Shown here one piece after another: positions 21,111 to 56,783 of a stretch of DNA of 64,000 nucleotides. The position numbers and the translations under genes were made by a program. The stretch spans positions 416,001-480,000 of the forward strand of contig CAWGXH010000003.1 in assembly GCA_963826525.1 (NCBI GenBank), written 5' to 3'. The first letter of the stretch is position 1. Each line of letters starts with the position of its first letter. The stretch comes from an uncultured Methanomicrobiaceae archaeon (GTDB lineage: Archaea; Halobacteriota; Methanomicrobia; Methanomicrobiales; Methanoculleaceae). The notes under the pieces are model-generated. The model had not been told where the DNA came from. It ran no database searches and was given only the letters and a program-made list of their open reading frames with translations.

Positions 21111-21244
21111 AGGACATGAGGAACTGCAACGGATGATTTCGGAGAGGAGGGTATTGGTGGATCTTCTCTGTGAGAGGTTATAAGAGAGAACTGCGCATGT
21201 GGACGGGAATATAAAATCGTTTTGCTAAATTCTCTTGATCTGTG

Positions 21245-30804: not shown

Positions 30805-30880
30805 ACAAAAAAGTTACTGACCCCGCCCGTACCGGCATTCTGTCTTTTCGAACTAAATCGGGAAAGATAGAGTCGCTTGG

Positions 30881-32795: not shown

Positions 32796-34230
32796 GTCGC
32801 TCCGGTGCGCCCTTCAGTTCACGGGGGTGTCTGCCGGCTCTGAAGTGTTCTTCGATCTCTTCGAGCGTGAGCCCTTTCGTCTCCGGCACCAGTCTTAAGA
32901 CGAAGATCCATGCAAAGATACCCACGAGTGCGTAGAGCCAGAAGACACCTGCCCGTCCCAGCGCTCCGACCAGTGTCAGGAACGTCAGGGTGATGAGAAA
33001 GTTCGCAGCCCAGTTGGCGATGGTTGCGACGCTCATGGCACGGCCCCGTACATTGAGCGGGTAAATCTCGGAGATCAGCAGCCAGAACACCGGTCCGAGG
33101 CCGATGGCAAATGAGACGACGTATGCCATCAGGCCGATCGCGGTTATCAGCCCGAGGAGAGTACTCCCCTGAACGGTTCCGCCGAAAGCGAACCCCGCCC
33201 CGAGCAGGGCGAGGCTCGCGACCATGCCGCCGATGCCCACGAGGAGAAGTGGACGGCGCCCGGCCCGGTCCACGAGCACGATGGCGGCAACGGTCCCGAG
33301 GACGTTCACGACACCGACGCCTGCAGTCGCTGCGATCGAGGCACCGGCCGAGTGCAGTCCGGCAAACTGGAAGATGGTCGGGGCGTAATAGATGACGGTA
33401 TTGATACCGGTGAACTGCTGCAGGACGGCCAGGCCGAGACCGACGATCAGGGGCATTCTCATCGACGATGCCAGCAGGTCCGACCAGCTCCCGGCTTTCT
33501 GTACCTTGACCGCTCGCTCGATCTCGTCAAGCTCGTTCGATACGTCCCGGGTTCCGCGGATCTTCCGGAGAACGCCGGTTGCCCGATCGGAGTGATTATG
33601 GGAGACGAGCCACCGGGGACTGCCCGGGAGCAGGAACATCCCGACGAGGAGGACGGTGGCCGGCACTGCACCGAATGCAAACATGGCGCGCCAGTCGCCG
33701 CTTGCGGAGAAGAGGTAATCGACTCCGTACGAGACGAGGATCCCGATGGTGATGAAGAGCTGGTTGAGCGAGACCATGCCGCCGCGGAGCGCCGGAGGCG
33801 CAAGCTCCGATATGTAGAGAGGAACGACGAACGATGCGACACCGATGGCCATGCCTATCAGCACGCGGCCGACGAGGAAGATGGGCAGGCCCCCGGCAAT
33901 GACGACGATCGCCGTGCCTGCGAGGAACACGGCCGATGCAGCGATGATCGAGGGGCGCCGCCCAATCCTGTCGGCAAGGAGACCCCCGGCTATCGCACCC
34001 AGAATTGCGCCGACGAGCACCGAGCTGGTCGCGATCTCTTCCAGGGTCGGCGAGAGGCCGAAGTCCCCGGTGATGAAGAGGATCGCTCCCGAAATGACCC
34101 CTGTGTCGTACCCGAAGAGGATCCCGCCGATGGCCGCTATTGCAACGGCAATGTAGATGAACGGCGTGAGACCGGATCTCTTCGGCTCTCCGCCCTGTGC
34201 TTTCATGCTCCACCTTCTCCTTGATTTCAA
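32788..34230 (-). CDS. Sugar porter family MFS transporter (GalP/XylE-like)
   Basis: GGILFGYDTGVISGA, DRIGRR, YISELAP...RG, QQFTGINTVIYYAP, PETKG. Confidence 0.95.
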   Translation of the reverse strand: MKSRRRWSMKAQGGEPKRSGLTPFIYIAVAIAAIGGILFGYDTGVISGAILFITGDFGLSPTLEEIATSSVLVGAILGAIAGGLLADRIGRRPSIIAASAVFLAGTAIVVIAGGLPIFLVGRVLIGMAIGVASFVVPLYISELAPPALRGGMVSLNQLFITIGILVSYGVDYLFSASGDWRAMFAFGAVPATVLLVGMFLLPGSPRWLVSHNHSDRATGVLRKIRGTRDVSNELDEIERAVKVQKAGSWSDLLASSMRMPLIVGLGLAVLQQFTGINTVIYYAPTIFQFAGLHSAGASIAATAGVGVVNVLGTVAAIVLVDRAGRRPLLLVGIGGMVASLALLGAGFAFGGTVQGSTLLGLITAIGLMAYVVSFAIGLGPVFWLLISEIYPLNVRGRAMSVATIANWAANFLITLTFLTLVGALGRAGVFWLYALVGIFAWIFVLRLVPETKGLTLEEIEEHFRAGRHPRELKGAPERRD

Positions 34231-34424
34231 GCGGCCCTGTTCCGAAAGGCTCCCTCACCGTCAGGCAGGACCGATACAATCACACGGCAAACACACCATT
34301 GCCCCTCAGAATATGCATCGTGCGATCTACTGTCTCTCATCAGGTGACTGGTGCTGTGTCCGTGGAGACATAAAGATAGTGGTGCGCCGGACTTTGCATC
34401 TCATAAGTACCTATTTTTCAAGAC

Positions 34425-34516
34425 TTTAGGGGCACCCCATACTTTCGGTGCAAGAATTGTGCTTTAGGTGCAGAGCTCGTTGTTTAGGTGCAGAATTGGC
34501 TTTAGGTGCAAAGCCG
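34425..34516 (+). repeat. Five TTTAGGTGCA-type sites at 18-20 bp spacing
   Basis: Sites at 34425, 34443, 34463, 34483 and 34501; the last 33 bp recur at 36006-36040. Confidence 0.85.
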
Positions 34517-34660
34517 AACCGTGCTTTCATTTCTCATTAAAAATATCTGGGCTTCCCCTTTCTCATCGCCCTGTAAGGTGGTTGCAACCATGTCGGATGT
34601 TGAAAGGTTCGGCCTATTCTACGAAGGATTGTCTACGCCTCGATAAACACCCGGTAACCC

Positions 34661-35247
34661 CTATGTCAGCGGCGTGACCTGTATCTGTTTCGAAAGGTTG
34701 TAGGCGGTCGAAAGATCGCTCTCATTATACACGAGCACCCTTCCCTCGACGAGTAATCTATTGTCCGAAGCGGCCAATTGCGTCAGTCCCGTTGGTACAG
34801 TCCCCTTCCAACCCGGTCCGGTGATGAGATAGGAACCCGCCTGGGTGCCGGTGGTGCGTTGGCCGACATAGAAGGGGTCACCCCAGGGGTCGACGAACTC
34901 TACACTATAGTATCGTCCATCCATGTCCGGCACGTGCAAGACCTGCGGCCCTTTGCTCAAATCGAGCACGCCGATAGTGTAGAGCACGTCGTGGTTTGCG
35001 CCTGCCACGTTGTTGTGGGTGGATGGGGAAGCGAGAGTTGTCAAGGTGTAAAGCGTATTGACAGGGATGCCGGTGGAATTCGGCGTTGCTCCGAAGCCGT
35101 TATCGATAATCGAGTTTTCCCATGTGGTGTAAATGATATGGGGATAATAGTAGATGTAGAGGGGGGTGCCTATTGCCAGGTACCGATGAGCACTGTCACG
35201 GCGAACAGGCGTCGATTCTTGTGTTTATTACTTTTACTATCCGGCAT
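34661..35247 (-). CDS. DUF1254 domain protein; indel near 35170
   Basis: N.DVLY..G.LDLSKGPQVLHVPDMDGRYYS...DPW...G.R..G...G.YLITGPGWKG. Confidence 0.8.
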
Positions 35248-35861
35248 CAGCGCACCTCCACGACCGGCGGCACCTGGTACGTACCATTCAGGATCGCCTG
35301 GCCGGGCAGGTAGGCGCGAAGCCACAGTCTGAAGTTGCCGGAGGGTGCCGGCAGCCAGTTTGACTCGTTGCCGGATGGAGGTGCGTTTTGTATGGTGATG
35401 TCAACGGACCCGTCAGTGTTCGGCACAAGGTCCGAATATGTACCGACGTTATAGCGGTTTATCGAATTGTTCACCATATGATTGGTTAAGTCGGTCATTG
35501 TCAGCGACCAGAAGGCATCGCTGGGAGGGAGCCCTCCGGCCGGGAAGTGCAACAAATAGTTATGTGTTCCGTTCAGCCTGGCTCCCGTGCTGTCCACGGT
35601 TGTCGTCCAGTACACCGCCTCCTCCGCCACGTTGGCGCCGGGAAGGACCTGGGAGAACGCTGCCCGTGAGAGTATGTTGCCGTCCCATTTCCCGTAATCC
35701 AAGGTGGTGCTCCAGCCATTGAGCGTGATTTCCATGGTGTGTGCCTCAATGTAAATGAGCGTGCCTCCAAGGCCGAATGATGCCAGCACCGCCCCCACGA
35801 TAATTCCGAGCACTATCACGCCGATGATTTTTATTTTACTCATTGACTCCGCCACCGTCAT
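35247..35861 (-). CDS. DUF1214 domain protein
   Basis: N..EEAVY...DSTGARLNG...Y.LHF....PP..AFWSLT, DGSVDITIQ, NWLPAP, LRAYLP. Confidence 0.88.
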   Translation of the reverse strand: MTVAESMSKIKIIGVIVLGIIVGAVLASFGLGGTLIYIEAHTMEITLNGWSTTLDYGKWDGNILSRAAFSQVLPGANVAEEAVYWTTTVDSTGARLNGTHNYLLHFPAGGLPPSDAFWSLTMTDLTNHMVNNSINRYNVGTYSDLVPNTDGSVDITIQNAPPSGNESNWLPAPSGNFRLWLRAYLPGQAILNGTYQVPPVVEVR

Positions 35862-35968
35862 ATATTCGGTCGCTGTTATAACGGGATTTGTATTACATAA
35901 ACTTGAGGATACTATTTATCCCCCTAATATCGTGGATCTCATTTGAACCGAGCTTCTGTCAAAGTGAC

Positions 35969-36040
35969 TTTATGTGCAAAGCCCAAAAGGCAGTATATCA
36001 AGACGTTAGGTGCAGAATTGGGACTTTAGGTGCAAAGCCG
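35969..36040 (+). repeat. Three TTTA(G/T)GTGCA-type sites; direct repeat of 34484-34516
   Basis: TTAGGTGCAGAATTGG(GA)CTTTAGGTGCAAAGCCG. Confidence 0.85.
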
Positions 36041-36226
36041 GTGCGCCGTACTCCGCAGATTGCCTGCTCGAAGCAGCTGCAGTGAGGAGCCCGTGGCTGG
36101 AAAGGCCCTCGTGCCCCGCCGACCGGGAGACCATCATTCCCGTCTCTGCCCGACTTCCGTAGCAGGGCCGTGCAGGGCGATTGTGCGGGAATCAGGGAAA
36201 TATATTTATGCCACCATAGAAATGAC

Positions 36227-36415
36227 GTGGACTTTCATCGTCTCTCCGGACAGCGGTGGCGTATTCTCGGCGTGGGTAGTCTCGGCATCCTCGTCATTCT
36301 TGCTGCTATGGCGAACCCGCTCATCGCACTTATATCGCTGATGATTCTGGTGACCGTCGGCGTACTGCTGATCACGCTTACGGTGATCAGGATGCTTTCA
36401 GCATCCCGGCAGTAA
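36227..36415 (+). CDS. 62-aa two-TM membrane protein, paralogue of 37694-37882
   Basis: GTG start MDFHRLSGQRWRILGVGSLGILVILAA; upstream promoter shared with the paralogue. Confidence 0.6.
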   Translation: MDFHRLSGQRWRILGVGSLGILVILAAMANPLIALISLMILVTVGVLLITLTVIRMLSASRQ

Positions 36416-36471
36416 AACCAGCGAAGGGGTATCGTCAAAAAATGTGGCGGTGAGGGGATCCGGGTATGCCT

Positions 36472-37413
36472 TCACGCTCCCGCTGTGACGACGAAGGTTC
36501 CGGTCATGATGGTCGGGTGGACGTCGCACCGGAAGAAGTAGTTGCCGGGCGTACTCGGTGCGGTGAAGGTGTACTTGATCGTGGCCGGGCCGGTGATGAT
36601 CTGCCCCGTGAAGATGGCGTTCTGGGCGGCGGGGGTATCGTAGACCGCAAAGTTGTGCGGAATGCCCGAATCCTCGTTGTCGAAGTCCACCGTCACGTTT
36701 GCCCCCGCGGGCACCGTGATCGTGCTCGTGTTAAACGCGATGTTCTTTGCGATCAGCCCGACGGTCACGCTCAGACCCCTGCTCGTCATGTTCTGCGTCT
36801 GGTTCTGCGCCTGTCCGGTTACGTTGACGCCCGGTGGGATCAGCACTGCATCGATGGTGTGAACGATCCCGTTGCTTGCGTTGGTATCGGCCTGGACGAC
36901 CGTTGCATTGTCGATCATGAGCGTGCCGTTCTGCACGGTCACGGTCAGGTTCTGCCCGGAAAGCGTCTGCAGCATGGTCATATTGGTCATATTCTGCGTG
37001 GCGTTCGAGGTCGCGTTGGACCCGGTCATGTTCATGAGATCTGCGGTCGTGTACGTGCCCTGAACCACGTGGAACCTGAGGATCTCGCTCAGCATGGTCG
37101 TGTTGTTCAGGAGCCGGCTCACGGTCTGGTTGCCGAGATCGTCGAATGCCTGATTGTCGGGCGCGAAGACCGTGTACGGTCCCGTGCCGTTCAGTTCTTC
37201 GGTCAGGTTTGCCGCCCGAATCGCCGTTGCCAGAGTGGATAGATTCCCATTCTGCTCGATGACGCCGACGACCGTTATGTTGGGGGTCATATTCCCGGTC
37301 TGGTTCGCGGGACTCATCGTGGTATTCTGCTCCCCGACCGGCATCCCTATAACGGCAGCAGGGATCGCCAGCAGGAGCAGGGTGCACATGCTCATCCATA
37401 CGATATATTTCAT
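36472..37413 (-). CDS. Exported fasciclin (FAS1) + type-1 copper cupredoxin fusion
   Basis: Signal peptide; FAS1 motifs GPYTVFAPDNQAF and NGIVHTIDAVLIP; copper ligands PHNF...CDVHPTIM. Confidence 0.9.
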   Translation of the reverse strand: MKYIVWMSMCTLLLLAIPAAVIGMPVGEQNTTMSPANQTGNMTPNITVVGVIEQNGNLSTLATAIRAANLTEELNGTGPYTVFAPDNQAFDDLGNQTVSRLLNNTTMLSEILRFHVVQGTYTTADLMNMTGSNATSNATQNMTNMTMLQTLSGQNLTVTVQNGTLMIDNATVVQADTNASNGIVHTIDAVLIPPGVNVTGQAQNQTQNMTSRGLSVTVGLIAKNIAFNTSTITVPAGANVTVDFDNEDSGIPHNFAVYDTPAAQNAIFTGQIITGPATIKYTFTAPSTPGNYFFRCDVHPTIMTGTFVVTAGA

Positions 37414-37693
37414 AGACTTCCCTCCATGGGTGACCTGAGGGATTTTTGCAATAATATATAAATGTGATTATAATTCTCCGGCGCCGGGATAATCCGGCCG
37501 GGGAGCGCCTCGCACAATTGCGAAAGGAGGTATCCGGTAGGTGAAACTCGATTTTTCCCCGCAGAGGTGGAGGGCCCGGCGTGGTTCCCGGTGGATACCG
37601 GCTGCCTGTCGGAGGTCTTCAGGGAACGCAGCCCTGCTCCCATAACGCCTGTGCGGGAGTGAGGGAATATATTTAACCAGCCATAGGAATGCT

Positions 37694-37882
37694 ATGGATC
37701 TTTTTCACCTCGCCGGACGGCGATGGCGGCTCCTCGGGGCGGGAGTTCTGGGCATCTTCGTCGTTCTTGCCGCGATTGCATATCCGGGGATTGCACTCGG
37801 TTTATGTATTACCCTGGTTGGCCTTGCGACCGTGCTGGTGTCGCTTGCCATGACCGGAGTGCTGGAGAAGTCCCGGGAGTGA
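37694..37882 (+). CDS. 62-aa two-TM membrane protein
   Basis: MDLFHLAGRRWRLLGAGVLGIFVVLAA; TATA-like ATATATTTAA upstream. Confidence 0.6.
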   Translation: MDLFHLAGRRWRLLGAGVLGIFVVLAAIAYPGIALGLCITLVGLATVLVSLAMTGVLEKSRE

Positions 37883-38002
37883 AGGCTCCCCTACGCATTG
37901 ACTGCACGGGCGATCCTGCGGTGTCCTGCGGTGCGGTAAACCGCTCCTCATCCGAATGTCTCTCCTGCGTGGGAAGGGGGGGTGAGTCCGGGTGCCGGCC
38001 GG

Positions 38003-39634
38003 TTATACCGATGCTTCATCGGTGGGCTGGTAGGAGGTGTGCTTGAAGACGTACCAGATCAGCAGCCAGTTAAAGCCGATGATGATCCCCCAGACTGCAA
38101 GAATCTGCGGCATGGGTATGGGTGTGGGGAACGCCGTGCCGCCCGGCACCGGGATGAGCTCGTAGACCATCCAGGGAGACCGGGCTGATTCCCGTACAAA
38201 TCCCATCACCAGCACGATGGCCATCCCCAGGATGCCTGCGGTGAACGCCGCCGTGATCGACCCCCGGCTCAGGTAACCCCACTGCCCTTCTTTCGCCTCG
38301 CTGGTCAGTACGATCGTATCCAGCATGAGTATCGCGGCACCGATCGCCGCCATCACCCACAGGGCGACATATTTTGCCTCCATGGACCCTATCGGGTTGA
38401 TCCATGCTCCCGGTTCGGTGGAGTAGACCGAACCGAGCCACGCCGGCTGGATAAGGACGAAGGCGGCCACGAGAACGATCGCAAAGAACCCCCAGAACAT
38501 GGTTCGCAGGGTACGGTTTTCCGGCCGGGAGAGGAGCTGATCCCGCCTGCTGATGAAATAGGCAATGATGGTCAGAACGAGGCCGGAGAACAGCCCGACC
38601 ATAAAGAGCATCTCCCAGGCACGGGGGCCGTGCATGATCATAGCGAATGCACCGGGCGAGTTTTGCATGATGCTGGTCATGTACTGCTGCCCGAGGACGG
38701 GCTGCATGATCAGCCCCACCAGACCCCATAAGAGGCCGTAGGCCGCCACCCAGTCCCATTGCTTCTTCGAAGCGAAATCGTCTCTTCCCCGGTAGTGCAT
38801 CATCGCCATGGTTGCCGTCAGGAAACCGACAAACGATACTGCAGCAGCGAGCCGGTGAAACGTCAGCTGCCATAAGGTCGGGTTGTACCATGCCAGCAGC
38901 AGGTCGCCCGCTGCGATTGGAAACAGACCGGTGGTCGTATAGTCGATTGAGGGGATGTTCGGGGTCAGCATGCCGGAACCCATCATGGTGATGGCAATCA
39001 TCTGGAGGAAGGTGGCGACGGCAAAGGCGACGCCGACGAACAGATGCCATCCGGTGCTGATCCTGTCCCACCCGAACCACAAGATAAACATCAGCGTGAT
39101 GATCAGGCCGTAGAAGAGGAGATACGCGAAGAACGGCCACCACCATAGTTTGAATGCATTCATCGCGAATGTGGGAAAGAGCGCGATGAAGTACAGAATG
39201 GCTGCCGCTCCGAAGGTGCCGACCGCAGAGACGGTGATGATATTGAGGAGCGTGAGGGACCTCGCCAGGTTTTTGTAGCGCATCTTCTTATGCCGGTGGT
39301 AGAAGACGATCGTCGCCAGAATGATCCAGGACCCTCCTACGGCCAGATTCGCCAGGACGGTATGCGTCAGCAGGACGGCGGCTATGATGATCGAACGGCC
39401 GGAACCTCCCATATCGACCTCCTGGATCGGCAGGTTCGCCGGCTGCTCGACGGTTACCCCGGCAATCTGGTCCTGGAGCAGTTCGGTCGACGAGATAAGA
39501 CCGCCCTGCAGGGGTACGAATACCGTGGTCAGAATGATGAGGTAGACGACGACTGCGATAATGATCCCCCAGATGATCCTCAACCGAGGATTCTTTTCGA
39601 CATCGGTTCGCCCCGATTCTGCATTTCCCTCCAT
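38003..39634 (-). CDS. Cytochrome bd subunit I (CydA)-like membrane protein, degenerate paralogue (A')
   Basis: THTVLANL (H19-like), FHRL (H186-like), GSMEAK (M393-like), RESARSPW (ExGRxPW-like). Lacks the E99/E107 equivalents and the Q-loop KLAAxE. RBS GGAGGA before ATG 39634. Confidence 0.82.
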   Translation of the reverse strand: MEGNAESGRTDVEKNPRLRIIWGIIIAVVVYLIILTTVFVPLQGGLISSTELLQDQIAGVTVEQPANLPIQEVDMGGSGRSIIIAAVLLTHTVLANLAVGGSWIILATIVFYHRHKKMRYKNLARSLTLLNIITVSAVGTFGAAAILYFIALFPTFAMNAFKLWWWPFFAYLLFYGLIITLMFILWFGWDRISTGWHLFVGVAFAVATFLQMIAITMMGSGMLTPNIPSIDYTTTGLFPIAAGDLLLAWYNPTLWQLTFHRLAAAVSFVGFLTATMAMMHYRGRDDFASKKQWDWVAAYGLLWGLVGLIMQPVLGQQYMTSIMQNSPGAFAMIMHGPRAWEMLFMVGLFSGLVLTIIAYFISRRDQLLSRPENRTLRTMFWGFFAIVLVAAFVLIQPAWLGSVYSTEPGAWINPIGSMEAKYVALWVMAAIGAAILMLDTIVLTSEAKEGQWGYLSRGSITAAFTAGILGMAIVLVMGFVRESARSPWMVYELIPVPGGTAFPTPIPMPQILAVWGIIIGFNWLLIWYVFKHTSYQPTDEASV

Positions 39635-39835
39635 ACAACATCCTCCGTCAGGCATCCGGTATCCTGAATGTACTTCCCTGTATGTACCCCGTCCGGGGCC
39701 GGAATTCAGACATCTGCACACCTCTTCTCCCCTGTATTCGAGTCTCCGGCGCCTGAACGGATCGAAACGATCGGTCTCGGCCGGAAACGTGCGGGAGGTC
39801 CGGCAGAGTATCCACGGCGAGAGAGGGCAGGGAGA

Positions 39836-40050
39836 TCACACGCTGGTGTGCCCGTTCGAACGTGCGGAATACGCTCCTTCCACCGGACTGCAGTCTTCTT
39901 CGGTTCCGTCTTCATGGTCATGACCTCGATCAGAGTTGCGGGACAGCGGATCACGGTCAGGCCGAGCGCCCAGAACAGGTAGATCACCAGAATCATATAG
40001 CCGATGATCGCTCCCCACACGACGTAGAATCGGACTCTTCGTTCAGGCAT
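39836..40050 (-). CDS. Small single-TM protein between the CydA-like genes (3' end uncertain)
   Basis: MPERRVRFYVVWGAIIGYMILVIYLFWALGLT with an upstream GGTGA RBS. Confidence 0.5.
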
Positions 40051-40131
40051 CCGTCATCACCGCCGTATCTCCGTGCATATTCATCTCTCCTTGCTTTCTC
40101 TCCATACCCGGAGAGGGAGAAGTGCTCTGCA

Positions 40132-41785
40132 TCAGAGTTCCTCCTTCGTCTCCGGATGCTCTGCGGTCACCTTTGTTGTGAACCAGAATATTGCCCAGAT
40201 CAGGACAAGGATCACCCCCCAGATGACGAAGATCTGCGGCATCGGCACCGGCGTCGGGAATTGCTGCCCTCCGGGCACGGGCACGATATTATAGAACAGC
40301 CACGGCGATCTGCCCGACTCCCGCACGTAGCCCATCACGATGATGATCCACGAACCGAGCACCCCGGCCACCGCTCCCGCCCACCGCGACGAATGGGTTA
40401 TGGAGCCCCATTCGGACTCCAGCCGCCGGCCAAGGATGAGGGCATCGATCCCCAGCATGACCAGGCCAACGCCGATCAGGATGATCAGAGCGATAAATTT
40501 CCAGTACATGAAGCCGAGCGGGTTGATGATCGCGCTGACGTCATACTTGCTCGTCACGCCTCCAAGCCATGCGGGGTTGACGAGGAAGAAGCCGACGGCT
40601 GCGATGACGACGACGAACGCCCGGAAGAGTTGTCGTATTCTGCGATTCTCGGGTCGTCTCAGCACCCGATCCCGCCGCTCAATGTAGTAGACAAGCACAA
40701 AGAGGAGGAGGAATGTGAGCAGGGCGAGCATCATCAGCATCTCCCATGCCCGGGGTCCGTGTCATGATCATGCTGAACGCCTGCGGCTGTTTGGTGAAGA
40801 TGGTGAACATGTACCAGAGGCCGAACACAGGCTGGAAGACCAGTCCGAGCAGTCCCCAGAGGATGCCATACGACCCTGCCCAATCCCAGAACCGTTTCGA
40901 AGACGAATTTTTCTGGTCGTAGAAATGGAGCATGGCAAAGAACGCGATCATGAACCCGAAGAACGAGGCGGCGGCAGCCACGCGATGGAACTGGAGCGGC
41001 CATATGGTCGCGTTGAACCACCAGTTCATGTAATTTGCAAACGGCATGCAGAAGAAGCAGCTCGTCTCGTTGAGCCAGTTGATGCTGGTCGCCCCTGCGG
41101 CAGGCGTCAGCATCCCGGCGGCGATGGTGTCGATCAGTGTCGTCTGCAGAAAAACGTCGAGCGGGTAGAATACGGCGAGGACCATCGTCCATGCCGGTTT
41201 TATCTTGCCCCAGCTGAACCAGAGGGTGTAGAGGAAGAATATCTCGGCTCCGAAGGTGATCGCCTCTATGAAGAGCGGCCACCAGTAGATGTGGAACGCG
41301 TTGACGGCGAATGTCGGGAAGAGCGAGATGAAGAAGGTCATCCCCCCGATGGCGTAGGTTGCACCCGCAGAGAAGAGGATGACGTTGAAGAGCAGGAGAG
41401 ACCGTCCGAGGTGCAGGTACCGGGTCTGGCTGCTGAGGAACCACAGGGCGATCGTGGCGAGGATCACCCAACCCCCTCCCAGGTGCAGGTTGGCGAAGAC
41501 GACGTGGGAGAGCATGACGAAGGCGATGAAGATCGACCTCCCCGAACTTCCGAGATCCGTCAGTTGAATCGGCACCTGTTCCTCGTATGCCGGGTTCGCG
41601 GCCGCCAACTCGGTTGAAAAGATCGATGTCGAAGAGGTGAGCCCTCCCTGTTGAGGTACGATGTAGACGATGAGAATGATAAGGAAGATTGCCAATGCAG
41701 CGAGAAGTCCGTAGATCTTTCTCATATCGCCCCTCGGCTCAGCATCCGGGGGGGATTGCCCTGTATCCGTATACCCGTTGGACAT
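40132..41785 (-). CDS. Cytochrome bd subunit I (CydA)-like membrane protein, candidate catalytic paralogue; +1 indel near 40760
   Basis: SHVVFANL, PLFIEAITFGAEIFF (E99/E107-like), FHRV, GFMYWK, RESGRSPW; collinear with the paralogue at 38003. Confidence 0.85.
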
Positions 41786-42042
41786 GCTCCTCGGCGGCAG
41801 TCTACAGAGTTATGTCATAAAAACCTTTCTTCCGATCGTGCCGGGAACCTGTGCTTCTGCCGGACGGCCGGGTATTGTGGGAGAGAGATGCCGATGGGTT
41901 CATTCTGTACACGCACCGCTCTGCCTATGCCGTTCCGGTGCGTGGAACTCGTCTATCCGGGTGCCGCATGCCCCGGGCGGAACGGTGATTGAGTGGAAAA
42001 GAGAGGGTTACGGTTTCCCCTCAGCGATGTTCGTTTCGTCCA

Positions 42043-43774
42043 TCAGGCCGTCGTCGAAGTGTTACCTCCGGGAAGGCCGAATGCGACGACGTATCCGCCA
42101 GGATTCTGGGTCTGTATGCCACCTGCGGGTACCAGGAGCACTCCGTTGCCGATGGACGGCCCGCCGACGGAGGCCTGCGAACCGAGCTGGAACCGCCAGA
42201 GTTCGTTCCCGGTATCCGCATCAAGGGCGAAGATGGAACCCGTAGCCCACTTCGGAGACCAGGTCGGGCCGCCGAAGGCGCTGTACTCGTAGGGTGTGCC
42301 GACCGTCGATACGTTGCCGCTGAAGACCACACCGTTCGTCACGAGAGGCGAGCACCAGGTGGGGGTGTAGGTGTCGTACTGCCACTTGATGTTGCCGGTC
42401 GCGGCATCGAGCGCCACCACGGACCCGTTGCCGATGCCGTTCGGCATCGCATCGAATGCCGGTTTCGCACTGCCTCCGGGGCTGGGCAGCGTGGAGAAGA
42501 TCATGCCCTGGTTGCTCACGGCGGCGTAGACGGTGCCGTTGTCGTCAGCCGCAGTGTAGGCCTCGATGCCGTCACCCGGTCCCGGCCAGGTCACCGGACT
42601 GCCGTTCTGCGTCGGCGTAGAATTGTCGTTCATCGTAATGGCGAGGTTCTTCCACCAGACGATCTCGCCGGTGTCCGGATTCATCGCCGCGATGTCTCCA
42701 TGTTTATCGTGGCCGATGACGTACTTGGTCGTGCCGTTCGAGGTGTTGACGGTGACCAGGTTCGTGCCCCAGGCGGTATCCCAGTCGTGGGTGTCGGGCG
42801 TCTGCACCGGGAAGATCGTGCCGTTCGCCACGAAGGGCGTCGCCCAGAGGATCGAGCCGTTGGTGCAGTCCACTGCAATCACGTTGCTGGTGTAGTTGTT
42901 GGCGCCCGGTCGGGTTTCTGCGTTAAAGTCCGGTGCTGCGTTGCCGACCGGCAGGTAGACGACGCCTTTCTCCTCGTCCACCGCTCCTCCTGACCAGGTG
43001 GTTGCCCCGCCATTCATGGTCGTGTTATTGCCCGTGACCCACGCCCCGACAGCGGTCTCGGTCTGCCAGAGCATGGAGCCGTTCTCCTTGCTGACGCCGG
43101 TCACCGTTCCCCTTGCCGGGAACCCGAACGGCGGATCATCGCCGAGAGCGGATCCCGCGATGATGACGTCGTTGCAGATGAGCGGGGGTGCGGAGATTCT
43201 CCAGGCGCTGCCGTTCTGGAGATTCGGAGACTCCCATACCCTCTCACCGGTCTCGGCGTTCAGCGCCACGATCGTTCCGTTCGCAATGGTGGGCACATAG
43301 AGGGTGCCGTTCTCGTAGGTCATCCCGTGAGCGGTCGAGACCCGCGGAAGACTGGCTCCGGCAACGAGCGTGACGTTCGTGTCGTAGAACCACTTCACCG
43401 TACCGGTGTTGAGGTCGAAAGCGATCACCTGGGCTCCGTTGTTCTCGACATACCCGGTATCGCCGACGATCAACGGCGGCGCTTCTACGGTATACTCGGT
43501 GTTCAGGATCCACTTCACCTGCAGCTGATCGACGTTATCTCTTCCGATCGCTGTCTGCGGGCTATACCGCGACATAGCATTGTCATAATTGGTCATCGGC
43601 CAGTCTTCGGGCGTCACCGTATAGGCGCTGCCCGCACTGCTGGTCGCATTGGTCGTTACGCTGGTGGTCTGGTTCATGTGGTTGGGTCTGATTCTCCTGG
43701 GCACACGCGCCGATCGGGAGCAGAACCGCCATCACCAGGGCAACGATCAATACGCCTTTCCAAATATCTTTCAT
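42043..43774 (-). CDS. Exported PQQ-dependent dehydrogenase-like beta-propeller protein 1; indel near 43680
   Basis: Signal MKDIWKGVLIVALVMAVLLPIGACA; DWPMTN...RYSP..IG..NV.QL; GGATTW; GNAAPDF; RPGANNYT; DTHDWD; repeated ALDA.TG...W. Confidence 0.88.
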
Positions 43775-44140
43775 GTGTGCATCTCCTGGCCCAGGGATGC
43801 GCGAATCGCTTGTCGTGTCCGGCGTGCCGAATGTACCTGGGTCTCGTGTAATAGGGTGTAATGTGATCGTACCGCTCCATCCGCAGGGTCAAGCCCTTTC
43901 CTGCACAACGGAATATCTAGATTTCTCTGTATGGAAGATAGCGCGAAATTATCTGATCAATTGCATAAAAATCGGGTGTCCTGGCATTCCGGTAAACGAC
44001 GAAATTTCCGGAGATTATTCAAAAGCATCCCTTCTCGACCGGCTTCGTTGTGACCCCCGGTCAGCGGTGAATCGCCGGTTTCCCTGCACATCAGGCGGGG
44101 CGGGTCACTGTGCAGGACGGTTGAAAAAGAAAAATTCGAG

Positions 44141-45193
44141 TTACGAATACCCGGGGGAATTCGGGGGGACGACGTACCAGAGGCCGCCGAACTGGTTCAG
44201 CCCCTGGCCTGAGGTCTGGCCCGGCGACGTATCCGCGGCATAGTAATACAGGGGCATTCCTTTGTATGCGGTCTGCTTCGACCCGTCACTCCTGGTAAAC
44301 GAGGTGAAGTCGGAGGCTTTCAGGTCGGACGGGACAGATATCGACGAGGCATAGAAGACCGGCCACACCCCGGTACATCCTCCGCTGCAGGAACTCTTAT
44401 CCCTGGAGTCGGTCGTGAAATTGTACAGCGTCCTTCCTTTCCCATCGACCAGGAATGTTCCCAGCTGGCTGGTCGAGCTGGTCTTCACGGTATACGACGT
44501 GGATGAAGACGTCCCCGTCGGGGTCGGGGTAGCCGTTGTGGCTGTGGTTGTTGCCGTCGCGGTCGGAGTGGGTGCGGCAGTCGTCGCCGTGGTGTTCGCT
44601 GCGGTCGTGGCCGTCGTGGTCGGGGTAGTTGTTGTTGCCGTAGTATTCGTTGCAGCCGGGGTAGCCGTGGTTACGTTTGCTGCTGTCGTGGTCGGGGTGG
44701 TCGTCGCCGTGGTCGCCGTGGTTGTGGGTGTAGCAGTTGCGGTTGCGGTGGCCGTCGTCGCCGCCGACTGCACGAAGACCTCAACCGAATCGGCGACGGA
44801 GGGGTTCAAGGGTGTGTTATCGTTATTGACCAGTTGGACTGCGAATACGTGGGTGCCCGGCTGGACATTCTCCCAGGTGTATGAGGTATCCGCCGTGGGG
44901 GGAGCGGTCCCTTCTCTCGTGATGGCAGGGCTGCCCGGCTCGATCGGGATCGAAGAGACGTCCATGTAATACAGAAGGTGCCCCTCGCCCGGGACGTTCG
45001 CCTGCCCGGTCTTGTTCACCAGCGTGATCTGGCCGACATCGACGGTCACCTGGACGCTGCCGGTAGGGATCTGCGCTCCGCTCTGAGGCGAGGTGATCGT
45101 CACCATCGGCTGTGCCGTCGATACACAGGCGGCGAGGATGGTGGCAATCGCCAGAATGAGAAAAGACAGGGCTATTACATGAAACCGGTTCAT
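44141..45193 (-). CDS. Lipoprotein: DUF4399-like Ig domain, Thr-rich stalk and COG4315 (Yx(FWY)xxD / Lipoprotein_15) domain
   Basis: Lipobox LAAC; GEGHLLYYMD; GRTLYNFTTD...C..GC...WP, R.DG..Q.AY.G.PLYYYAAD. Confidence 0.82.
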   Translation of the reverse strand: MNRFHVIALSFLILAIATILAACVSTAQPMVTITSPQSGAQIPTGSVQVTVDVGQITLVNKTGQANVPGEGHLLYYMDVSSIPIEPGSPAITREGTAPPTADTSYTWENVQPGTHVFAVQLVNNDNTPLNPSVADSVEVFVQSAATTATATATATPTTTATTATTTPTTTAANVTTATPAATNTTATTTTPTTTATTAANTTATTAAPTPTATATTTATTATPTPTGTSSSTSYTVKTSSTSQLGTFLVDGKGRTLYNFTTDSRDKSSCSGGCTGVWPVFYASSISVPSDLKASDFTSFTRSDGSKQTAYKGMPLYYYAADTSPGQTSGQGLNQFGGLWYVVPPNSPGYS

Positions 45194-45231
45194 GAGCGGA
45201 TAGTCCCGGAGATCTGATACAAAAATGTTTC

Positions 45232-46909
45232 TCACGGCGAAGCCCGGCACCCTGCCATGGTAACGGCGTACCCCTGGCCTGGAAGGGATCGTTCTCCGGC
45301 GTCCCCTGCAACGACCTGGGTCTTCCCGTCTCTGCCGGTAACGGGAGGTTTTCACCCCCGATCCGGAGCGCAATGATCGAAGGAGTGCCGTTCGAACCGA
45401 ATCCTCCTCCGGCGGGCCAGATTATGGTATCGTTGACGACGGCAGGCCATGCAGTGATGCGGTCCGGCGCAGTATAATTCCAGACGGCCTCGCCGGTCGT
45501 GCGGTTCAACGCGTATAAATTCCCGTCAAAGGTACCGGTAAAGACCAGATCGTTGACGACCGTGGCTCCTCCGACATCGACGGTGGGAAAGGTGCGTTCC
45601 CAGACGATCTTGCCGGTGTCGACCTCAATCGCAACCAGACTTCCATTGCCTTCCTGATAGGGTGGGATGTAGGGGGTTACGTTCCCTGCGAAGTACGCAT
45701 CGGACGACCAGTTCACGTAGAGGTTGTTGTATGCGGCAAACACGACCCCGTCGCTGTACGCCATGGGGGTTTCAACACCGCCCAGCGTACCCGGATAGAC
45801 CGTTGTGCGTCCGGGGGGAAGGGCTGCCAGCTGGTCGTTCTGATGCCTGCCGACGACTGTTTCCCAGAGGATGAAGCCGTTCGTCCGGTTAAATGCGTAG
45901 ACCCGCCCCATTTTGCCCGCCCCGATCACAATGTCCTGATCGAGGCCGCTGATGTTTGCGGAGGTCAGTATCGGGGGAATCTGGAAATCATAGTCGAAGA
46001 GGCCGTGCGGGACGACTTGCGTGTACCAGAATCATGCTGCCGGTCGAGTGGTTCAGAGCGAGAAGGCAGTTCGTATAGAGATTCGGGCCCGGCCGGCTCG
46101 CCCCGTTCGGGTAATCCTCGGTGCCGACGAAGGGTGCGGGGTTCCCGGTACCCAGAACATGATGCCGGTAGCCGGATCGATGGACGGGGTATACCAGCAT
46201 CCGCCGCCGCTATTGATCTCAGGGTGCCCCCAGAGATCGGGCGAGTCCACGGTGCTGATGTTCCAGACAACCTCCCCGGTCTCCTGATCCAGGGCGGTGA
46301 TCATCCCGATGCCGCCGGGGGCATAATCTATGTCCCCGATACCCGGTACGGTCGATGCGTACACCAGGCCGTCATAGACGGCGGGCTGAATATCGATCCC
46401 CGTGGTCGCCACGTTCGAGAGCCTCGTAGACCAGATCTCCGAACCGGTGGTGGCGTTCACGGCAGTCATCGTATACACGCCTCCGGCAAAGAATACCTTT
46501 CCCCATCCGACGGCAGGACCGTTTGGCCCGAGCACAAGTTCGGACGTGGGTTCAGAGCGCCATCGCACTGCACCGGTCCGCAGGTCGATAGCAGAGACGT
46601 TGGCTCTTCCGTCCTGGAAATAGACCGTATCACCCATGATAATAGGATTGCTCTGGGCGCCGCCGAACGGATTGGTGCCCGTGATGTTCCGCGACCAGGC
46701 GAGCTTGAGATCCGTGACCGTTGTGGAGTTGATGGGAGAATGCATGGTAGCCCGGGTATTGTTGTAATCAAAGTTCGGCAGCGGCCAATCATTGGCGTAC
46801 GTGACCACCTCCGGAGGAATGGCCGGGTTTGCGGGCTCCGCAGCAAGCGCCGGAGAGGCAATGAGCCAGAGGCTCAGGATAACCACGCAAAAAGCGATCT
46901 TCCGATGCA
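45232..46909 (-). CDS. Exported PQQ-dehydrogenase-like beta-propeller protein 2; several indels, 3' end approximate
   Basis: Signal MHRKIAFCVVILSLWLIASPALA; DWPLPN; GGGCW; GTGNPAPF; RPGPNLYTN; PHGLFDYDFQ; GAGKMG. Confidence 0.82.
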
Positions 46910-47249
46910 TAATGGGGACAGCATCCGAAACCGGATAGATAAGCATTCCCCCTGCTCCCCGGACGGTGTGCCGGGTACTCACCGAGGTCATCCCGAAATT
47001 CCCGTGCCGGGAGGGGGCACCTCCTCCCGGACTCACGCATCCTGCTGCAATAGTCGGCAGTGCGGCGGAGAGAAGCACGACAGAGAGGAGAATCCTTCAG
47101 TGTGCCGCAGATTCGGTAGGTTCCGTCGTATGTTTCGCCAGGGCGGGCTGTCCGCGGATCGTCGGCCGGTCATTGATGCGAGGCAGAGTCCTGTCGTCGG
47201 GAAGGCTCGACATCCTGATTGCGGAAAAAAAAGACGGGATCTGTCCGGG

Positions 47250-48032
47250 AACCCTGCATGCCGAGCCTGCCCGGTCACGATCCCGGCGTCACCGTGGGCG
47301 TGACGATATACGTGACGTTCCCGGGCCCCACCGATCACCTCTCCCGTCACGGTCGCGAGCGGGGTAATGGTCGGCAGCGGCGTAATCGTTCCGAGAGTGA
47401 GTATGGGGCCGGAGGCCGTTGTCGGCGGTACGGTTGCTCCCGGTCCCACGGCAATCAGCTCCGCAATACCCACTGCGGGCGGATCGAGCGGGGTAGTATT
47501 CGTCAGGACCAACTGTGCGGAGAAGTTGTGAATACCAGGTGTCAGATTATGCCAGGTATACGTGACATTCGTTGAGATTGCCGTAGAACCCGTCGCACCT
47601 TCGGGGAGGACGTCCGCCTTCGTATCCAGGGCGGTCTGCGGTGCGGCGTCGAGGTAGTAGACGATACGTCCCTGATCGTACGTGCTTGAGATGTTTTCAT
47701 ACGTCGATGTCAGGCTAAAGTTCTCCACGAGGACCTCAATGGTCACATCCGTCGAGGGGACTGCACTATCATACTGCGGCGATAGTATCGTGATCTTCGG
47801 GTTGCCGCTGCCTGGTACTACTCCCGGCGTCATGCCCGCTGCAGGCCCTGCAGGCTGCGTGGTCTCTGCCGGCGCCGTCGTGGTTACGTTTGCTGCTGCC
47901 GTGGTCGCGGGAGGTGTGGGTGTCGCGGTTGGGGTGACGGTGCCGTGGCGTTTCCTGATGGGCTCGTGCATCCCGCTCCGAGACAGAAGGCCCCGAGAAT
48001 GAATATGATTGCCAATATCCCGGCTTTTTTAT
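47250..48032 (-). CDS. Lipoprotein with Thr/Pro-rich stalk and DUF4399-like domain, paralogous to the N-terminus of the 44141 gene; ends approximate
   Basis: KKAGILAIIFILGAFCLGAGC; PKITILSPQ...GRIVYYLD...YTWHNLTPGIHNFSAQLV. Confidence 0.6.
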
Positions 48033-48287
48033 ACCTGGTGGCGAATGATGCCCTCGTGCCATATATGCTTTCCCGTCATCTACGGTCGACCGCCCCGTGA
48101 ATCGATCCGCACAACCGTGCTGTCGGCACTCCTCCGCAATTCAGGTGCGGATGGTTTCACGAGAACGAAAGAGATCTCGACTTTCGGATGACCGGGCACT
48201 CTCCGAAGGGTATACCGGTGCCGGCCGAATACGATCGGCGGATCAAAAGAAGGTCGGGGTGGTTCCCCCGTCCCCGGCGACCCTGGC

Positions 48288-48738
48288 TCAGGTTACGATG
48301 AACTGTCCGGTCATGATTCCCGGGTGGACGTCGCACCGGAAGAAGTAGGTGCCGGGCTGGCTGGGTGCGGTGAAGGTGTAGGTCGTGGTTGCAGGACCGG
48401 TGATGATCTCGCCTTTGAAGATGGCGTTCTGGGCGGCAGAAGTGTCGTAGACCGCGAAGTTGTGCTGGATGCCGGAGTCCTCGTTGGTGAAGTCCACCGT
48501 CACGTTTGCCCCTGCGGGTACCGTGATCGTGCTCGTGTTATATGCGATGTCCTTTGCGATCAGCCCGATGGTCACGCTCTGCCCGCCTCCGGTGGCTGTT
48601 GTGGTGGTCGGGGTTGTGGTGGTCGGGGTTGCCGTTGTCGGCGTGGTCTGGTTTCCTCCGGAGGAGGAAGTTACAGCCGGCGATCAGGACGACTGCCACA
48701 ACCGCGAGGAGTATCATAATTCGATATGGTGACGCCAT
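48288..48738 (-). CDS. Lipoprotein cupredoxin (plastocyanin/halocyanin-like type-1 copper); indel near 48660
   Basis: Lipobox LIAGC; QHNF...CDVHPGIM; nearly identical to the cupredoxin domain at 36480-36770. Confidence 0.85.
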
Positions 48739-48976
48739 GGGCGAAGACGGGACGTTGTGCATAATAAATGTTGCGCCTACCCGTGACGGATGCTCATGGC
48801 GCTTGAGGATAAAGGTCTCCGGGAAAAGTGTGCCGTGCGTCGGACACTTCCTCCTCGTGCCGGTTCGTTCGTTTCCTGCGGCCTCGCCGGATCGCCGGCT
48901 TCTGCCGGCACCAGGTGAGCGGGTCGACCGGTTTTCCGATCGGTGCCGGTTGAGGGCAGGAGTTAAATACAAGCCG

Positions 48977-49354
48977 ATGGCAATGGCGACCATGGCACGG
49001 TTAACCTCACTGGAGGGTCTGAGTACGGAAGCGAAGATCGGTAAGGTCGTGGTGCTGATCTCGATCATCCTGAGCATTATCGCGATCATTCTCATCCTCT
49101 TCATCGGGACATTTGCTCTCGACATGCTGCGTGCTATCCCCGGCATATGGGTGACCGGGATCTTTATCGTGGCGCTGATAAAGGTGATCGCGGTCGCACT
49201 CGGGGTCCTCTCACTGCAGATGACGACCGAGAATAGGTGGAAGCGGGCAGGAGTCTACGCCCTCATCGCCAGTGTCGTGCCGCCGCTCGACCTGCTCATG
49301 CTGCTCGGCGGAATCTTCTTCCTCACCAGCCCCGAAGCCCGTTCTCAATCCTGA
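48977..49354 (+). CDS. Hypothetical membrane protein
   Basis: 3-4 hydrophobic segments; TATA-like TTAAATA upstream. Confidence 0.55.
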   Translation: MAMATMARLTSLEGLSTEAKIGKVVVLISIILSIIAIILILFIGTFALDMLRAIPGIWVTGIFIVALIKVIAVALGVLSLQMTTENRWKRAGVYALIASVVPPLDLLMLLGGIFFLTSPEARSQS

Positions 49355-49468
49355 CCGGATGCAGGCATGGCGGGAGCAGGGATCCGGTCATGCGGGCCGC
49401 CGGCCGGATCTTTTTCTTTCCTGATGGACGGATGACGCGGTGAAAGGCGGGAAAACCCGCAGTCCCGG

Positions 49469-51917: not shown

Positions 51918-52014
51918 GAACCTCCCCCCTGCCCTCTTACTGCCGGGAGTATATTAAATGCTGGTGCCGCCGGAAGAACCTGCGATGCTCCCTCTCTGCC
52001 GGGCGTATCCGGCA

Positions 52015-53788: not shown

Positions 53789-54397
53789 GGCGTATTCGCC
53801 CCCCCTCGGGTGTGACCACTCCGGCATATGTCGCCGGACTATCCATGCTGCAAAAGCCCTTGTCAAGAGCGTCCGCATCACGCCGGCCATGGCTGGATGG
53901 GGCTGTATACCCGATCGACTGGATGTCTCATAGATCGGGGTATATACAGGTATCGCTCTCCGGCAGTAGGTGACGACCCCGGACAATTCCGGCCGCCCGG
54001 ATGATCCGTGCAGCATGCCCCTGTCGATACAACAGTGCCCGCCGGGCTCCCCTCTTTTACCCCTTATCTCACCGTATACCGGCACTTCCACATTCAAAAC
54101 CCGCAGACCGGCGTATCGGTACTCAAGACGGAGCGGTTCGCGGCATGTCATCCCTGTGCACCGGGCCGTTTGAAACCCGGGAAACGGGATTCGGCACTGT
54201 TCCCGATGAAGATCCGATGCCGTGCCTGAGGATACTGCACAGTTCATACGTGATCAGTCTGCAAAAGAGCGGCCGGAATCTATTAAAGGTCTGTTGCCGA
54301 TATGCCGATGGCGTGGCCATCCGGATGCCCGAAGATGCATGCGGTCGGACGGGTTTTGGTTTGAGCACATTGTCCGTGATTGGGGGCGAAGTCACGT

Positions 54398-56624: not shown

Positions 56625-56783
56625 GTCTCATCCGGTGCCGGGTATGCGATAGCCTATGTAAATAAAGGCGCCTCATCACAGGCGCCGAAGGGAGGGGACA
56701 CGGGTATCCGGGTTTGGGCTGCTCATGACCCCGGCCGGATGACAACCGACGGCTGCCCTCTCTCCATGCGGAGGTGAACTTCG

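Follow-up and report, generated by a model that had tools for sequence, protein, structure and literature searches.

A candidate cupredoxin-fed, quinone-independent bd-type oxidase on a genomic island of a methanogenic archaeon

Oxidases of the cytochrome bd type take electrons at haems on the outer face of the membrane and protons from the inside, and are not known to have an exit for electrons to the cytoplasm. In quinohaemoprotein alcohol dehydrogenases a pyrroloquinoline quinone (PQQ) domain is joined to a cytochrome c domain, and related one-electron transfers connect methanol dehydrogenase with cytochrome cL and methylamine dehydrogenase with amicyanin. The Methanomicrobiales are, to our knowledge, regarded as lacking both cytochromes and quinones. 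Here we describe a run of genes on the minus strand of a 64,000 nucleotide (nt) stretch of DNA from an uncultured Methanomicrobiaceae archaeon (the window), in which two paralogous CydA-like genes stand among genes for cupredoxins, PQQ-type β-propellers and other predicted surface proteins (Table 1). The reading that we propose, and to which we give an even chance, is that this island encodes a bd-type oxidase that is independent of quinones and fed by cupredoxins, along with the extracytoplasmic proteins that supply it with electrons.

The closest described enzymes are treated in a preprint by Murali, Gennis and Hemp (10.1101/2021.01.16.426971), the main text of which introduces the Q-loop-less families OR-C and OR-N and the archaeal CydAA'. 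According to that text, a/b pairs occur in which E99 and E107 are found in 'a' only, His19 is always kept and the spacing of the glutamates is shortened; operons include alternative electron donors; and OR-N has very few archaeal members and either 10 (N3-N5) or 14 (N1, N2) helices. The main text contains neither the word 'cupredoxin' nor 'PQQ'. A first-pass annotation of the window, made from its sequence alone, had presented the locus as a candidate new system, which was overstated, since Q-loop-less bd families with non-quinol donors and a/b pairs are described in the main text of the preprint. A literature search, with subscription journals largely outside its scope, found no description of this neighbourhood in methanogens.

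The CydA-like pair

The two CydA-like proteins, designated 'a' and 'b', are the sole matches to PF01654 in the genome; 'b' and the N-terminal part of 'a' score above the cut-off of 26.2 bits, and the C-terminal part of 'a' taken alone scores below it (Table 1). An AlphaFold model of 'b', based on 52 aligned sequences (pLDDT 85, pTM 0.88), has 12 long helices, the number also obtained from hydropathy. When this model was compared with the PDB using Foldseek, ranks 1–10 were all bd subunit I (probability 1.00; TM-score 0.49–0.63 normalised to the target; 12–16% identity to the solved chains), followed by CydB chains.

Residues were mapped through alignments to 5DOQ_A and 6RKO_A over helices 1–5 and the C-terminal region, with His186 and Met393 numbered as we take them to be in E. 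coli, and conservation was assessed in a family alignment of 58 sequences (60 extracted, two of under 500 amino acids (aa) dropped). The equivalents of the haem-ligand histidines His19 and His186 are invariant (58/58), and the equivalents of Glu99 and Glu107 are glutamate in 46/58 and 43/58 sequences, respectively, with the spacing E-x6-E. Both of these proton-channel glutamates are present in the window 'a', which retains all its key residues when its frame break is read through, and 'b' has Tyr and Ile instead. A C-terminal motif of the CydA-like proteins aligned to the 'GRQPW' region of bd enzymes. No alignment to the Q-loop of 5DOQ_A or 6RKO_A was obtained between the equivalents of transmembrane helices 6 and 7; the model of 'b' has two membrane helices at this site, in addition to one extra N-terminal helix. 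Nine residues upstream of the Met393 column, where the same helix begins on its outer side, there is an invariant Met (M423 of 'b') that may act as the ligand of haem b558 instead.

Searches for CydB (PF02322) gave no matches in the 87.6%-complete genome, with the positive control matching 9/14 genomes, and the C..CH motif was absent from all minus-strand frames of 36472–49200. The first-pass annotation had likewise seen neither CydB nor a CxxCH protein in the window, and its suggestion of a haem-containing CydA-like pair agrees with the conserved histidines, just as its remark on bd members without the quinol site fits the missing quinol loop.

A profile search against 1.84 billion representative proteins returned three full-length representatives at >600 bits, with the next match at ~235 bits. 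Four lower-scoring relatives were scanned, and two of these (P0132 and P0177) consist of CydA with C-terminal cytochrome c domains. Judging by source names, homologues are also present in cultured Methanoculleus (e.g. P0066). The source annotations of homologues read 'cytochrome ubiquinol oxidase subunit I', a label which is misleading, since the protein lacks a quinol site and occurs in a lineage regarded as quinone-free.

A set of 55 related loci was surveyed by tblastn, using the proteins of the window and three proteins of the relative G015, and neighbours were counted within the available flanks; many of the contigs are short, and the neighbour counts are lower bounds. Most of the related loci have a single, glutamate-bearing CydA-like gene. 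Two CydA-like genes were counted at 16/55 loci, of which three represent one gene split between frames and 13 are true tandem pairs. In a phylogenetic tree the window 'a' adjoins the a-type clade of tandem pairs, and the b-type arose at least twice, in Methanoculleus-type pairs and in Methanotrichaceae. One locus labelled Methanoculleus sp. UBA303 (L024, 9617–11643) has ahb-like genes, a cupredoxin and a frame-split b-type CydA, with no a-type CydA gene seen at this locus; the lone b-type may be due to misassembly or to real loss.

Cupredoxins, propellers and their linkage to the pair

The cupredoxin family to which the window proteins were compared is 75% identical per column over 15 aligned domains, and its predicted type-1 copper ligands H38, C81, H84 and M88 are invariant in 15/15 members. 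Lipobox or signal peptides are present in the cupredoxin lipoprotein, in both propellers and in both β-sandwich proteins of the window. In the Methanomicrobiales sample members of the cupredoxin family are often found in open frames of 600–1200 aa, and in one genus the family was detected in 25/27 genomes.

The surveyed loci carry the labels Methanoculleus, Methanoregulaceae, Methanospirillum, Methanolinea, Methanotrichaceae, Methanosarcinales, Methanomassiliicoccales and Thermoplasmatales, with others labelled Thor-, Prometh- and Borrarchaea, Anaerolineales, Atribacterota and Sphaerochaeta, and one bin labelled Christensenella. A cupredoxin gene is located within 10 kb at 23/55 loci (22/38 methanogen-labelled loci and 1/17 others). 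It is directly upstream of the CydA-like gene and on the same strand at 16/55 loci, with ≥700 nt of upstream sequence available in 48 loci, and these 16 are labelled Methanoculleus, Methanotrichaceae, Methanosarcinales, Methanoregulaceae and Thermoplasmatales. PQQ-type propellers (PQQ1 and PQQ2 counted together) are found at 14/55 loci, GSDH-type proteins at 11, β-sandwich or Lipoprotein_15 proteins at 15, Ahb-like radical SAM proteins at 10 and fasciclin proteins at eight. The linkage noticed in the window is therefore repeated in relatives, whereas the first-pass list of partners was incomplete, as it missed a Usp-Usp-PCP_red protein which in this genome lies on another contig (G000:C4:1607419-1608637).

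The most complete arrangement was found in G130, a closed genome of the same family, where a single co-oriented run comprises genes for a β-sandwich-cupredoxin protein, ahbD-like, ahbA, ahbB and ahbC-like genes, a cupredoxin, CydA-a, CydA-b, GSDH, fasciclin, Usp-PCP_red and an ABC ATPase. The window's genome has this set in two parts, with the oxidase, cupredoxins and propellers on the island, and the ahb genes, a further PQQ1-type gene, Lipoprotein_15 genes, Usp-PCP_red and an ABC transporter at C4:1589–1609 kb. The Usp-Usp-PCP_red protein is ~400 aa in length and is often followed by an ABC-2 transporter, and its architecture is widespread in bacteria (ESM Atlas); it might serve in haem handling or in regulation. 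At 16/55 loci a soluble protein of ~230 aa, matching no Pfam family, is encoded between the CydA-like and Usp-PCP_red genes (e.g. L047:11662-12348 and L043:11584-12297); its hosts are mostly Asgard archaea, Anaerolineales and unclassified archaea, but also include Sphaerochaeta and Methanomassiliicoccales, and it is absent from the window's genome.

On profile similarity the propellers are true homologues of quinoprotein alcohol and methanol dehydrogenases, which were the best matches of the propeller family profile in the PDB (E 6.7e-27), and among 10 family members at least 90% retain the D-W-D that holds the putative catalytic Asp. Scored against TIGR03075, the C4 paralogue did not reach the cut-off (152.9 versus 480 bits), and the next NCBIfam match of this paralogue was 'acido-empty-quinoprotein' at 126.2 bits. 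The strongest evidence for joint action of propeller and cupredoxin is a fusion of the two on C4, where a 654-aa open reading frame (ORF) combines a PQQ propeller, a β-sandwich and a C-terminal cupredoxin (PF01011 117.7 bits, Cupredoxin_1 42.8 bits; G000:C4:1501938-1504621, equal to L071:3932-6621 on the minus strand), with the first propeller blades in a separate upstream ORF. This domain architecture supports the step from PQQ-type dehydrogenase to cupredoxin which the first-pass annotation had put forward.

In several relatives the β-sandwich domain and a cupredoxin match are also found within about 60 nt of each other on one strand. The AlphaFold model of the β-sandwich of 44141–45193 (pLDDT 93) gave only generic fibronectin type III and immunoglobulin (Ig) matches in Foldseek, with CopC at rank 43; together with a Pfam E of 0.0069 for DUF4399, below cut-off, this led us to reject assignment of the domain as DUF4399 or as a copper chaperone. 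A His-rich motif of the β-sandwich is common to its relatives (G-E-G-H-x-H-Y-Y-x-D, with an invariant His farther along, and N-N-D-H-T-P), a pattern which suggests a metal site. Both β-sandwich copies in the window are degenerate in this respect, with the His-rich motif partly lost.

Host genome, gene layout and haem supply

The window corresponds to C3:416001-480000 of a 3.06-Mb metagenome-assembled genome in 16 contigs (87.6% complete, 5.3% contamination), and both mcrA and the ahb cluster are located on its 1.86-Mb contig C4. On either side of the cluster the window is syntenic with a genome of the same genus, G001: positions 29471–34223 match G001:C5:914776-919526 at 84%, and positions 49429–52014 match G001:C5:921926-924510 at 92%. 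The two syntenic stretches are separated in G001 by just 2.1 kb, which corresponds to window positions 56770–58922, and the ~15 kb between 34.2 and 49.4 kb therefore represent an insertion relative to the same-genus genome. Contamination as the source of the contig was rejected on the basis of this flank synteny at 84–93% identity; the contig belongs to the methanogen itself, and the cluster is accessory. The possibility raised at first, that the contig might stem from an aerobic lineage, can be set aside, the host being an mcrA-bearing methanogen of the Methanomicrobiales.

CydA-like matches were absent from the same-genus genomes G001 and G002, and CydA-like genes were present in 2/40 sampled relatives and in 8/150 sampled genomes of the order. 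Neither an integrase nor a terminal repeat was found at the ends of the island; the two cupredoxin domains make up the sole long repeat, an 85% direct repeat (36485–36777 and 48292–48584) that brackets the cluster. A scan of the window with Rfam gave no matches, and no tRNA was found in it. The DUF1254/DUF1214 gene, which marks the island's left end, is bracketed by copies of a ~36-nt repeat with TTAGGTGCA-like units (family D5; 34441–34496 and 36003–36038). Upstream of the region, the window also has a nucleotidyltransferase/HEPN pair resembling a toxin-antitoxin module (19048–20223) and a fragment of a DDE transposase (21178–21570).

Table 1. Features of the cluster, listed in order of transcription, and extent of the island
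Feature	Position in window	Strand	Details
Cupredoxin lipoprotein	48288..48738	-	Lipobox signal peptide from 48738; copper domain 48288-48575: Cupredoxin_1 (PF13473) 43.3 bits, Copper-bind 32.2 bits
Second 'stalked' β-sandwich lipoprotein	47033..48100 (5' end ~48100)	-	Lipobox leader near 48050; Thr/Pro-rich stretch and Ig-like β-sandwich; C-terminus out of frame; zero Pfam matches
PQQ-type β-propeller 2	~45250..46910	-	Sec-type signal peptide from 46910; 3' end approximate; spread over three frames: PQQ_2 61.1 and 50 bits, PF01011 53.8 bits
β-sandwich/Lipoprotein_15 lipoprotein	44141..45193	-	Lipobox leader, Ig-like β-sandwich, Thr-rich linker, two Lipoprotein_15 repeats (PF03640, 99.6 bits)
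PQQ-type β-propeller 1, lipoprotein precursor	42043..43774	-	PF01011 161.2 bits; leader from 43774
CydA-like 'a'	40132..41785	-	PF01654 41.5 bits (N-terminal part) and 21.3 bits (C-terminal part), two ORFs
Small 114-codon ORF (probably no gene)	39706..40050	-	Within 497-nt a-b spacer
CydA-like 'b'	38003..39634	-	543 aa, unbroken; PF01654 52.3 bits
Secreted fasciclin-cupredoxin fusion	36472..37413	-	Fasciclin 117.7 bits, Cupredoxin_1 (PF13473) 38.5 bits
Island relative to same-genus genome: DUF1254/DUF1214 gene and full cluster	34224..49428	.	Synteny with G001

The cluster is read from the first Met of the cupredoxin lipoprotein to the stop of the fasciclin-cupredoxin gene, and these outermost positions are those given in the first-pass annotation. 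Eight of the nine elements listed there are present, in the order and on the strand described; the exception is the small ORF between 'a' and 'b', annotated as a transmembrane protein. We rejected a reading of this ORF as a CydX-like subunit, since it matches no Pfam family and tblastn found it at 0/55 related loci; its one resemblance, a weak one, is to the final helix of CydA (E 0.016 and 0.026), and it is probably not a gene. In the cupredoxin lipoprotein a Thr/Pro-rich linker precedes the type-1 copper domain, with both in another frame than the leader. The β-sandwich of the second stalked lipoprotein can be aligned with that of the Lipoprotein_15 protein and with those of relatives.

At least five genes of the cluster are frame-broken as assembled, namely those for CydA-a, PQQ1, PQQ2, the second β-sandwich lipoprotein and the cupredoxin lipoprotein. 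CydA-a is split by one extra base near 40762, outside any homopolymer; frame shifts are located near 46120 and 46035 in PQQ2 and near 48675 in the cupredoxin lipoprotein; and PQQ1, the cupredoxin lipoprotein and the second β-sandwich protein each have the leader in one frame and the mature part in another. Genes in the flanks are split likewise, including those for a P-type ATPase (49469–51917), a glycogen-phosphorylase-like protein (51710–54247, three pieces), the DUF1254/DUF1214 protein (34661–35861) and an AlbA_2/HATPase_c_4 protein (22049–23560), and on C4 one ahbD-like gene and that for Usp-PCP_red are split as well. At 2586 nt, the ATPase stretch of the window compares with 2585 nt in G001. 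Independent reads were available from two public DNA runs of one study, labelled soil metagenome, which yielded short, low-depth contigs identical to parts of the window. These differ from the window by only two indels, lacking 7 nt at 43678 and 1 nt at 46973, and without the 7 nt at 43678 the leader and propeller of PQQ1 are joined in one lipoprotein ORF of 574 aa; the contigs do not span the breaks near 46035, 46120 and 48675. Errors of an indel-prone assembly are the likelier cause of most breaks, since the sole independent contig bearing on a broken frame restores PQQ1 and since flanking housekeeping genes are also split, although this leaves room for some real decay.

Haem supply was one of the points raised for follow-up in the first-pass annotation, and genes for it were found on C4. 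The ahb cluster (G000:C4:1589212-1594769, equal to L069:5212-10769) contains AhbA, AhbB, AhbC/NirJ1-like and AhbD-like genes. AhbA (141.6 versus 140 bits) and AhbB (171.3 versus 125 bits) both pass their thresholds, and AhbC (332 versus 650 bits) and AhbD (298.5 versus 500 bits) are best matches only, with the NirJ1 and NirJ2 models giving similar scores. The AhbD-like protein is 505 aa in length with an N-terminal extension of ~135 aa, and a second NirJ2/AhbD-like gene is split in two. AhbB was detected in 51/150 genomes of the order, comprising 7/8 of those with CydA-like genes and 44/142 of those without; haem-synthesis genes are thus more widespread than those of the oxidase and are not confined to genomes that have it, and in several genomes the two are physically adjacent. 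PMC8351635 (Tables 2 and 3) gives AhbABCD in 0/32 and cytochrome bd in 0/32 Methanomicrobiales genomes, and PMC9478090 gives haem-pathway markers in 32/41 archaeal lineages and HdrDE in some Methanomicrobiales, so that the literature disagrees on haem synthesis in these lineages.

Proposed mechanism and relation to known systems

The absence of a quinol site, together with nearest relatives that bear cytochrome c, leads us to expect a protein donor at the outer face. In the scheme that we propose, the membrane core is probably made up of the two CydA-like paralogues with their 12 helices, in the manner of CydA and CydB in an ordinary bd oxidase, and electrons would enter at the outer face via the blue-copper (type-1) lipoproteins, which would take the place of the cytochrome c domains of relatives. 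The cupredoxins would carry copper and would probably be reduced by the surface-anchored PQQ-type propellers, upon oxidation of a substrate by the latter, and in relatives also by GSDH-type proteins. From the cupredoxin, electrons would pass to an outer-face haem of CydA-a/b and on to a buried di-haem site, where O2 would be reduced with cytoplasmic protons, although NO or another oxidant may serve as the acceptor. The haem b would be supplied by the ahbABCD-like genes on C4. Such an enzyme would allow a strict anaerobe to scavenge oxygen, and possibly to gain some membrane potential. This forward direction of electron flow is favoured because the glutamates are kept, the nearest relatives bear cytochrome c and the quinol site is absent. 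In several methanogen orders, genes for a bd-type haem protein, for haem synthesis and for blue-copper proteins recur as neighbours. If the scheme is correct, strict anaerobes gain an oxidase which needs no quinone, blue-copper proteins join the electron donors of the bd superfamily, and there are consequences for methanogen survival and methane emission in oxygen-exposed soils, digesters and sediments. A further-reaching version, which we regard as tentative and rather doubtful, is an energy-conserving micro-aerobic chain on the surface of methanogens, leading from propeller to blue-copper protein to CydA-a/b to O2. Secreted PQQ-like or GSDH-like propellers would oxidise an external substrate, and membrane potential would be built with neither quinone nor cytochrome c. 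The module would be self-sufficient through its own ahb genes, and its spread takes in records with the labels Methanoculleus, Methanoregulaceae, Methanotrichaceae and Methanomassiliicoccales, along with others.

A number of observations weigh against a cupredoxin-fed oxidase. The most conserved neighbour of the CydA-like genes is the cytoplasmic Usp-Usp-PCP_red protein, present at 40/55 loci and directly downstream in 30, and it is kept at 15/17 non-methanogen loci, which are largely free of cupredoxins; in many lineages, then, the core enzyme does its work with no cupredoxin. In the window's genome, Usp-PCP_red and ahb are both on a contig other than that of the oxidase. The cupredoxin family occurs in 57/150 genomes of the order versus 8/150 for CydA-like genes, and being seven times commoner, most cupredoxins must have other partners; moreover, paralogous modules of PQQ, β-sandwich and cupredoxin domains occur without CydA on C4 and C3. 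The gaps between the cluster genes are 250–600 nt, so that the cluster is no tight operon, the equivalent of Met393 is uncertain, the aligned column not being Met, and the CydA-a break near 40762 is outside the coverage of the independent contigs and may be real. Of the residues which we take to be functional in quinoprotein dehydrogenases (vicinal Cys-Cys, Glu and Asn metal ligands and the catalytic Asp of the 'WD' motif), the propellers lack the Cys-Cys pair and do not keep the Asn ligand, and an invariant Asp, accompanied by an insertion, stands in place of the metal-binding Glu. Genes for PQQ synthesis were not found in the 87.6%-complete genome either: pqqC gave no matches, a weak blank given that its control matched 0/14 genomes, and pqqB was sub-threshold (39.5 bits, cut-off 245). 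The earlier remark that the window shows no pqq genes thus extends to the genome only as far as this weak pqqC result and the pqqB score allow, and the PQQ-dehydrogenase role assigned at the same time is weakened. With the Cys-Cys pair and Asn ligand absent and no pqq genes found, PQQ is only a candidate cofactor of the propellers; external PQQ could be taken up. The distribution of Usp-PCP_red and of cupredoxins, and the modules without CydA, lend themselves to the main rival explanation, namely that the CydA-like protein has cytoplasmic or other partners, among them Usp-PCP_red, the ABC-2 transporter and, in other phyla, the ~230-aa protein, and that the surface genes merely share a neighbourhood of envelope genes. 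We consider this rather unlikely, as it does not account for the co-oriented cupredoxin directly upstream of CydA in 16 loci of several lineages, nor for the presence of the cupredoxin family in all eight CydA-like genomes among the 150, and as it leaves aside the outer-face protein donor expected for an enzyme without a quinol site.

Other explanations concern the state of the genes, the acceptor and the direction of electron flow. If the frame shifts were real, the island would be a relic of decaying pseudogenes, as the interruption of at least five cluster genes, the position of the CydA-a break outside homopolymers and read coverage, and the partner genes Usp-PCP_red and ahb lying elsewhere and being partly split as well would suggest. 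This is quite improbable in our view: the P-type ATPase, phosphorylase, DUF1254/DUF1214 and AlbA_2 genes of the flanks are split alike, with the ATPase stretch 1 nt longer than its G001 counterpart; both indel differences are disagreements of assembly versus reads, one of which restores an ORF; and the key residues of 'a' are all kept on read-through. It is similarly unlikely that the complex reduces NO, H2O2 or another oxidant, or serves as an electron sink or as a sensor that uses haem. Its host belongs to a lineage of strict anaerobes, yet the residues of the predicted di-haem O2 site and proton channel are those of O2-reducing bd enzymes. A reversal of the chain, with extracellular electrons entering as in direct interspecies electron transfer to feed methanogenesis, was the second option of the first-pass annotation and appears highly unlikely: no route to a cytoplasmic acceptor is known for bd enzymes, and the proton-channel glutamates of 'a' point to proton-consuming reduction at the haem site. 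According to PMC6315138, cupredoxin and PQQ-domain surface proteins of Methanosarcina barkeri are up during direct interspecies electron transfer, but by that paper's own account the potentials (150–680 mV for cupredoxin and ~90–100 mV for PQQ-protein) are too positive for the carriers of methanogenesis, and they fit poorly with electron entry. As for the acceptor, the main text of 10.1101/2021.01.16.426971 gives no activity for Q-loop-less bd members, but its authors read all such families as O2 reductases.

Compared with the CydAB enzymes of E. coli (6RKO/6RX4) and Geobacillus (5DOQ), the window pair shares the subunit-I fold, His19 and His186, Glu99 and Glu107 in 'a', a 'GRQPW'-like motif and, as proposed here, a two-subunit core built from one fold. 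It differs in having no Q-loop, with two extra helices at that site and one at the N-terminus giving 12 in all, and in its second subunit, which is a paralogue of CydA in a genome without CydB, and the identity to CydAB is 12–16%. With OR-C and OR-N, as given in the main text of the preprint, the pair has in common the lack of a quinol site, the a/b arrangement, the retained His19, glutamates in 'a' only and their shortened spacing, and candidate alternative donors encoded nearby, and the nearest outside relatives of the family carry C-terminal cytochrome c as OR-C does. The window cluster has no CxxCH and is thus not OR-C, and the 12 predicted helices differ from the 10 or 14 given for OR-N in that text; in both comparisons the donor candidates are different, being blue-copper proteins and PQQ-type propellers, and the hosts are methanogens. 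By the main-text description the family shows the general features of the OR type. The supplementary tables of the preprint, which list cydA subfamilies by genome, may already contain these genes, and this bears on how new the family is.

The periplasmic quinoprotein chains resemble the island in that a secreted homologue of the eight-bladed propeller has a one-electron carrier linked to it, and one paralogue is fused with such a carrier, with a proposed oxidase downstream. In the island, the carrier is a cupredoxin instead of a cytochrome c and the host is an anaerobic archaeon, and the propeller differs in lacking the Cys-Cys pair and the Asn ligand, with no pqq genes found. The latter is shared with M. 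barkeri, which, according to PMC6315138, has surface or lipoprotein cupredoxins and PQQ-domain proteins without pqq genes, and for which the authors doubt PQQ as the cofactor of the PQQ-domain proteins. The genes of M. barkeri are scattered, were picked by expression and are not described there with a link to bd-type or ahb genes, whereas in the island and its relatives cupredoxin, propeller and CydA-like genes are physically and recurrently linked.

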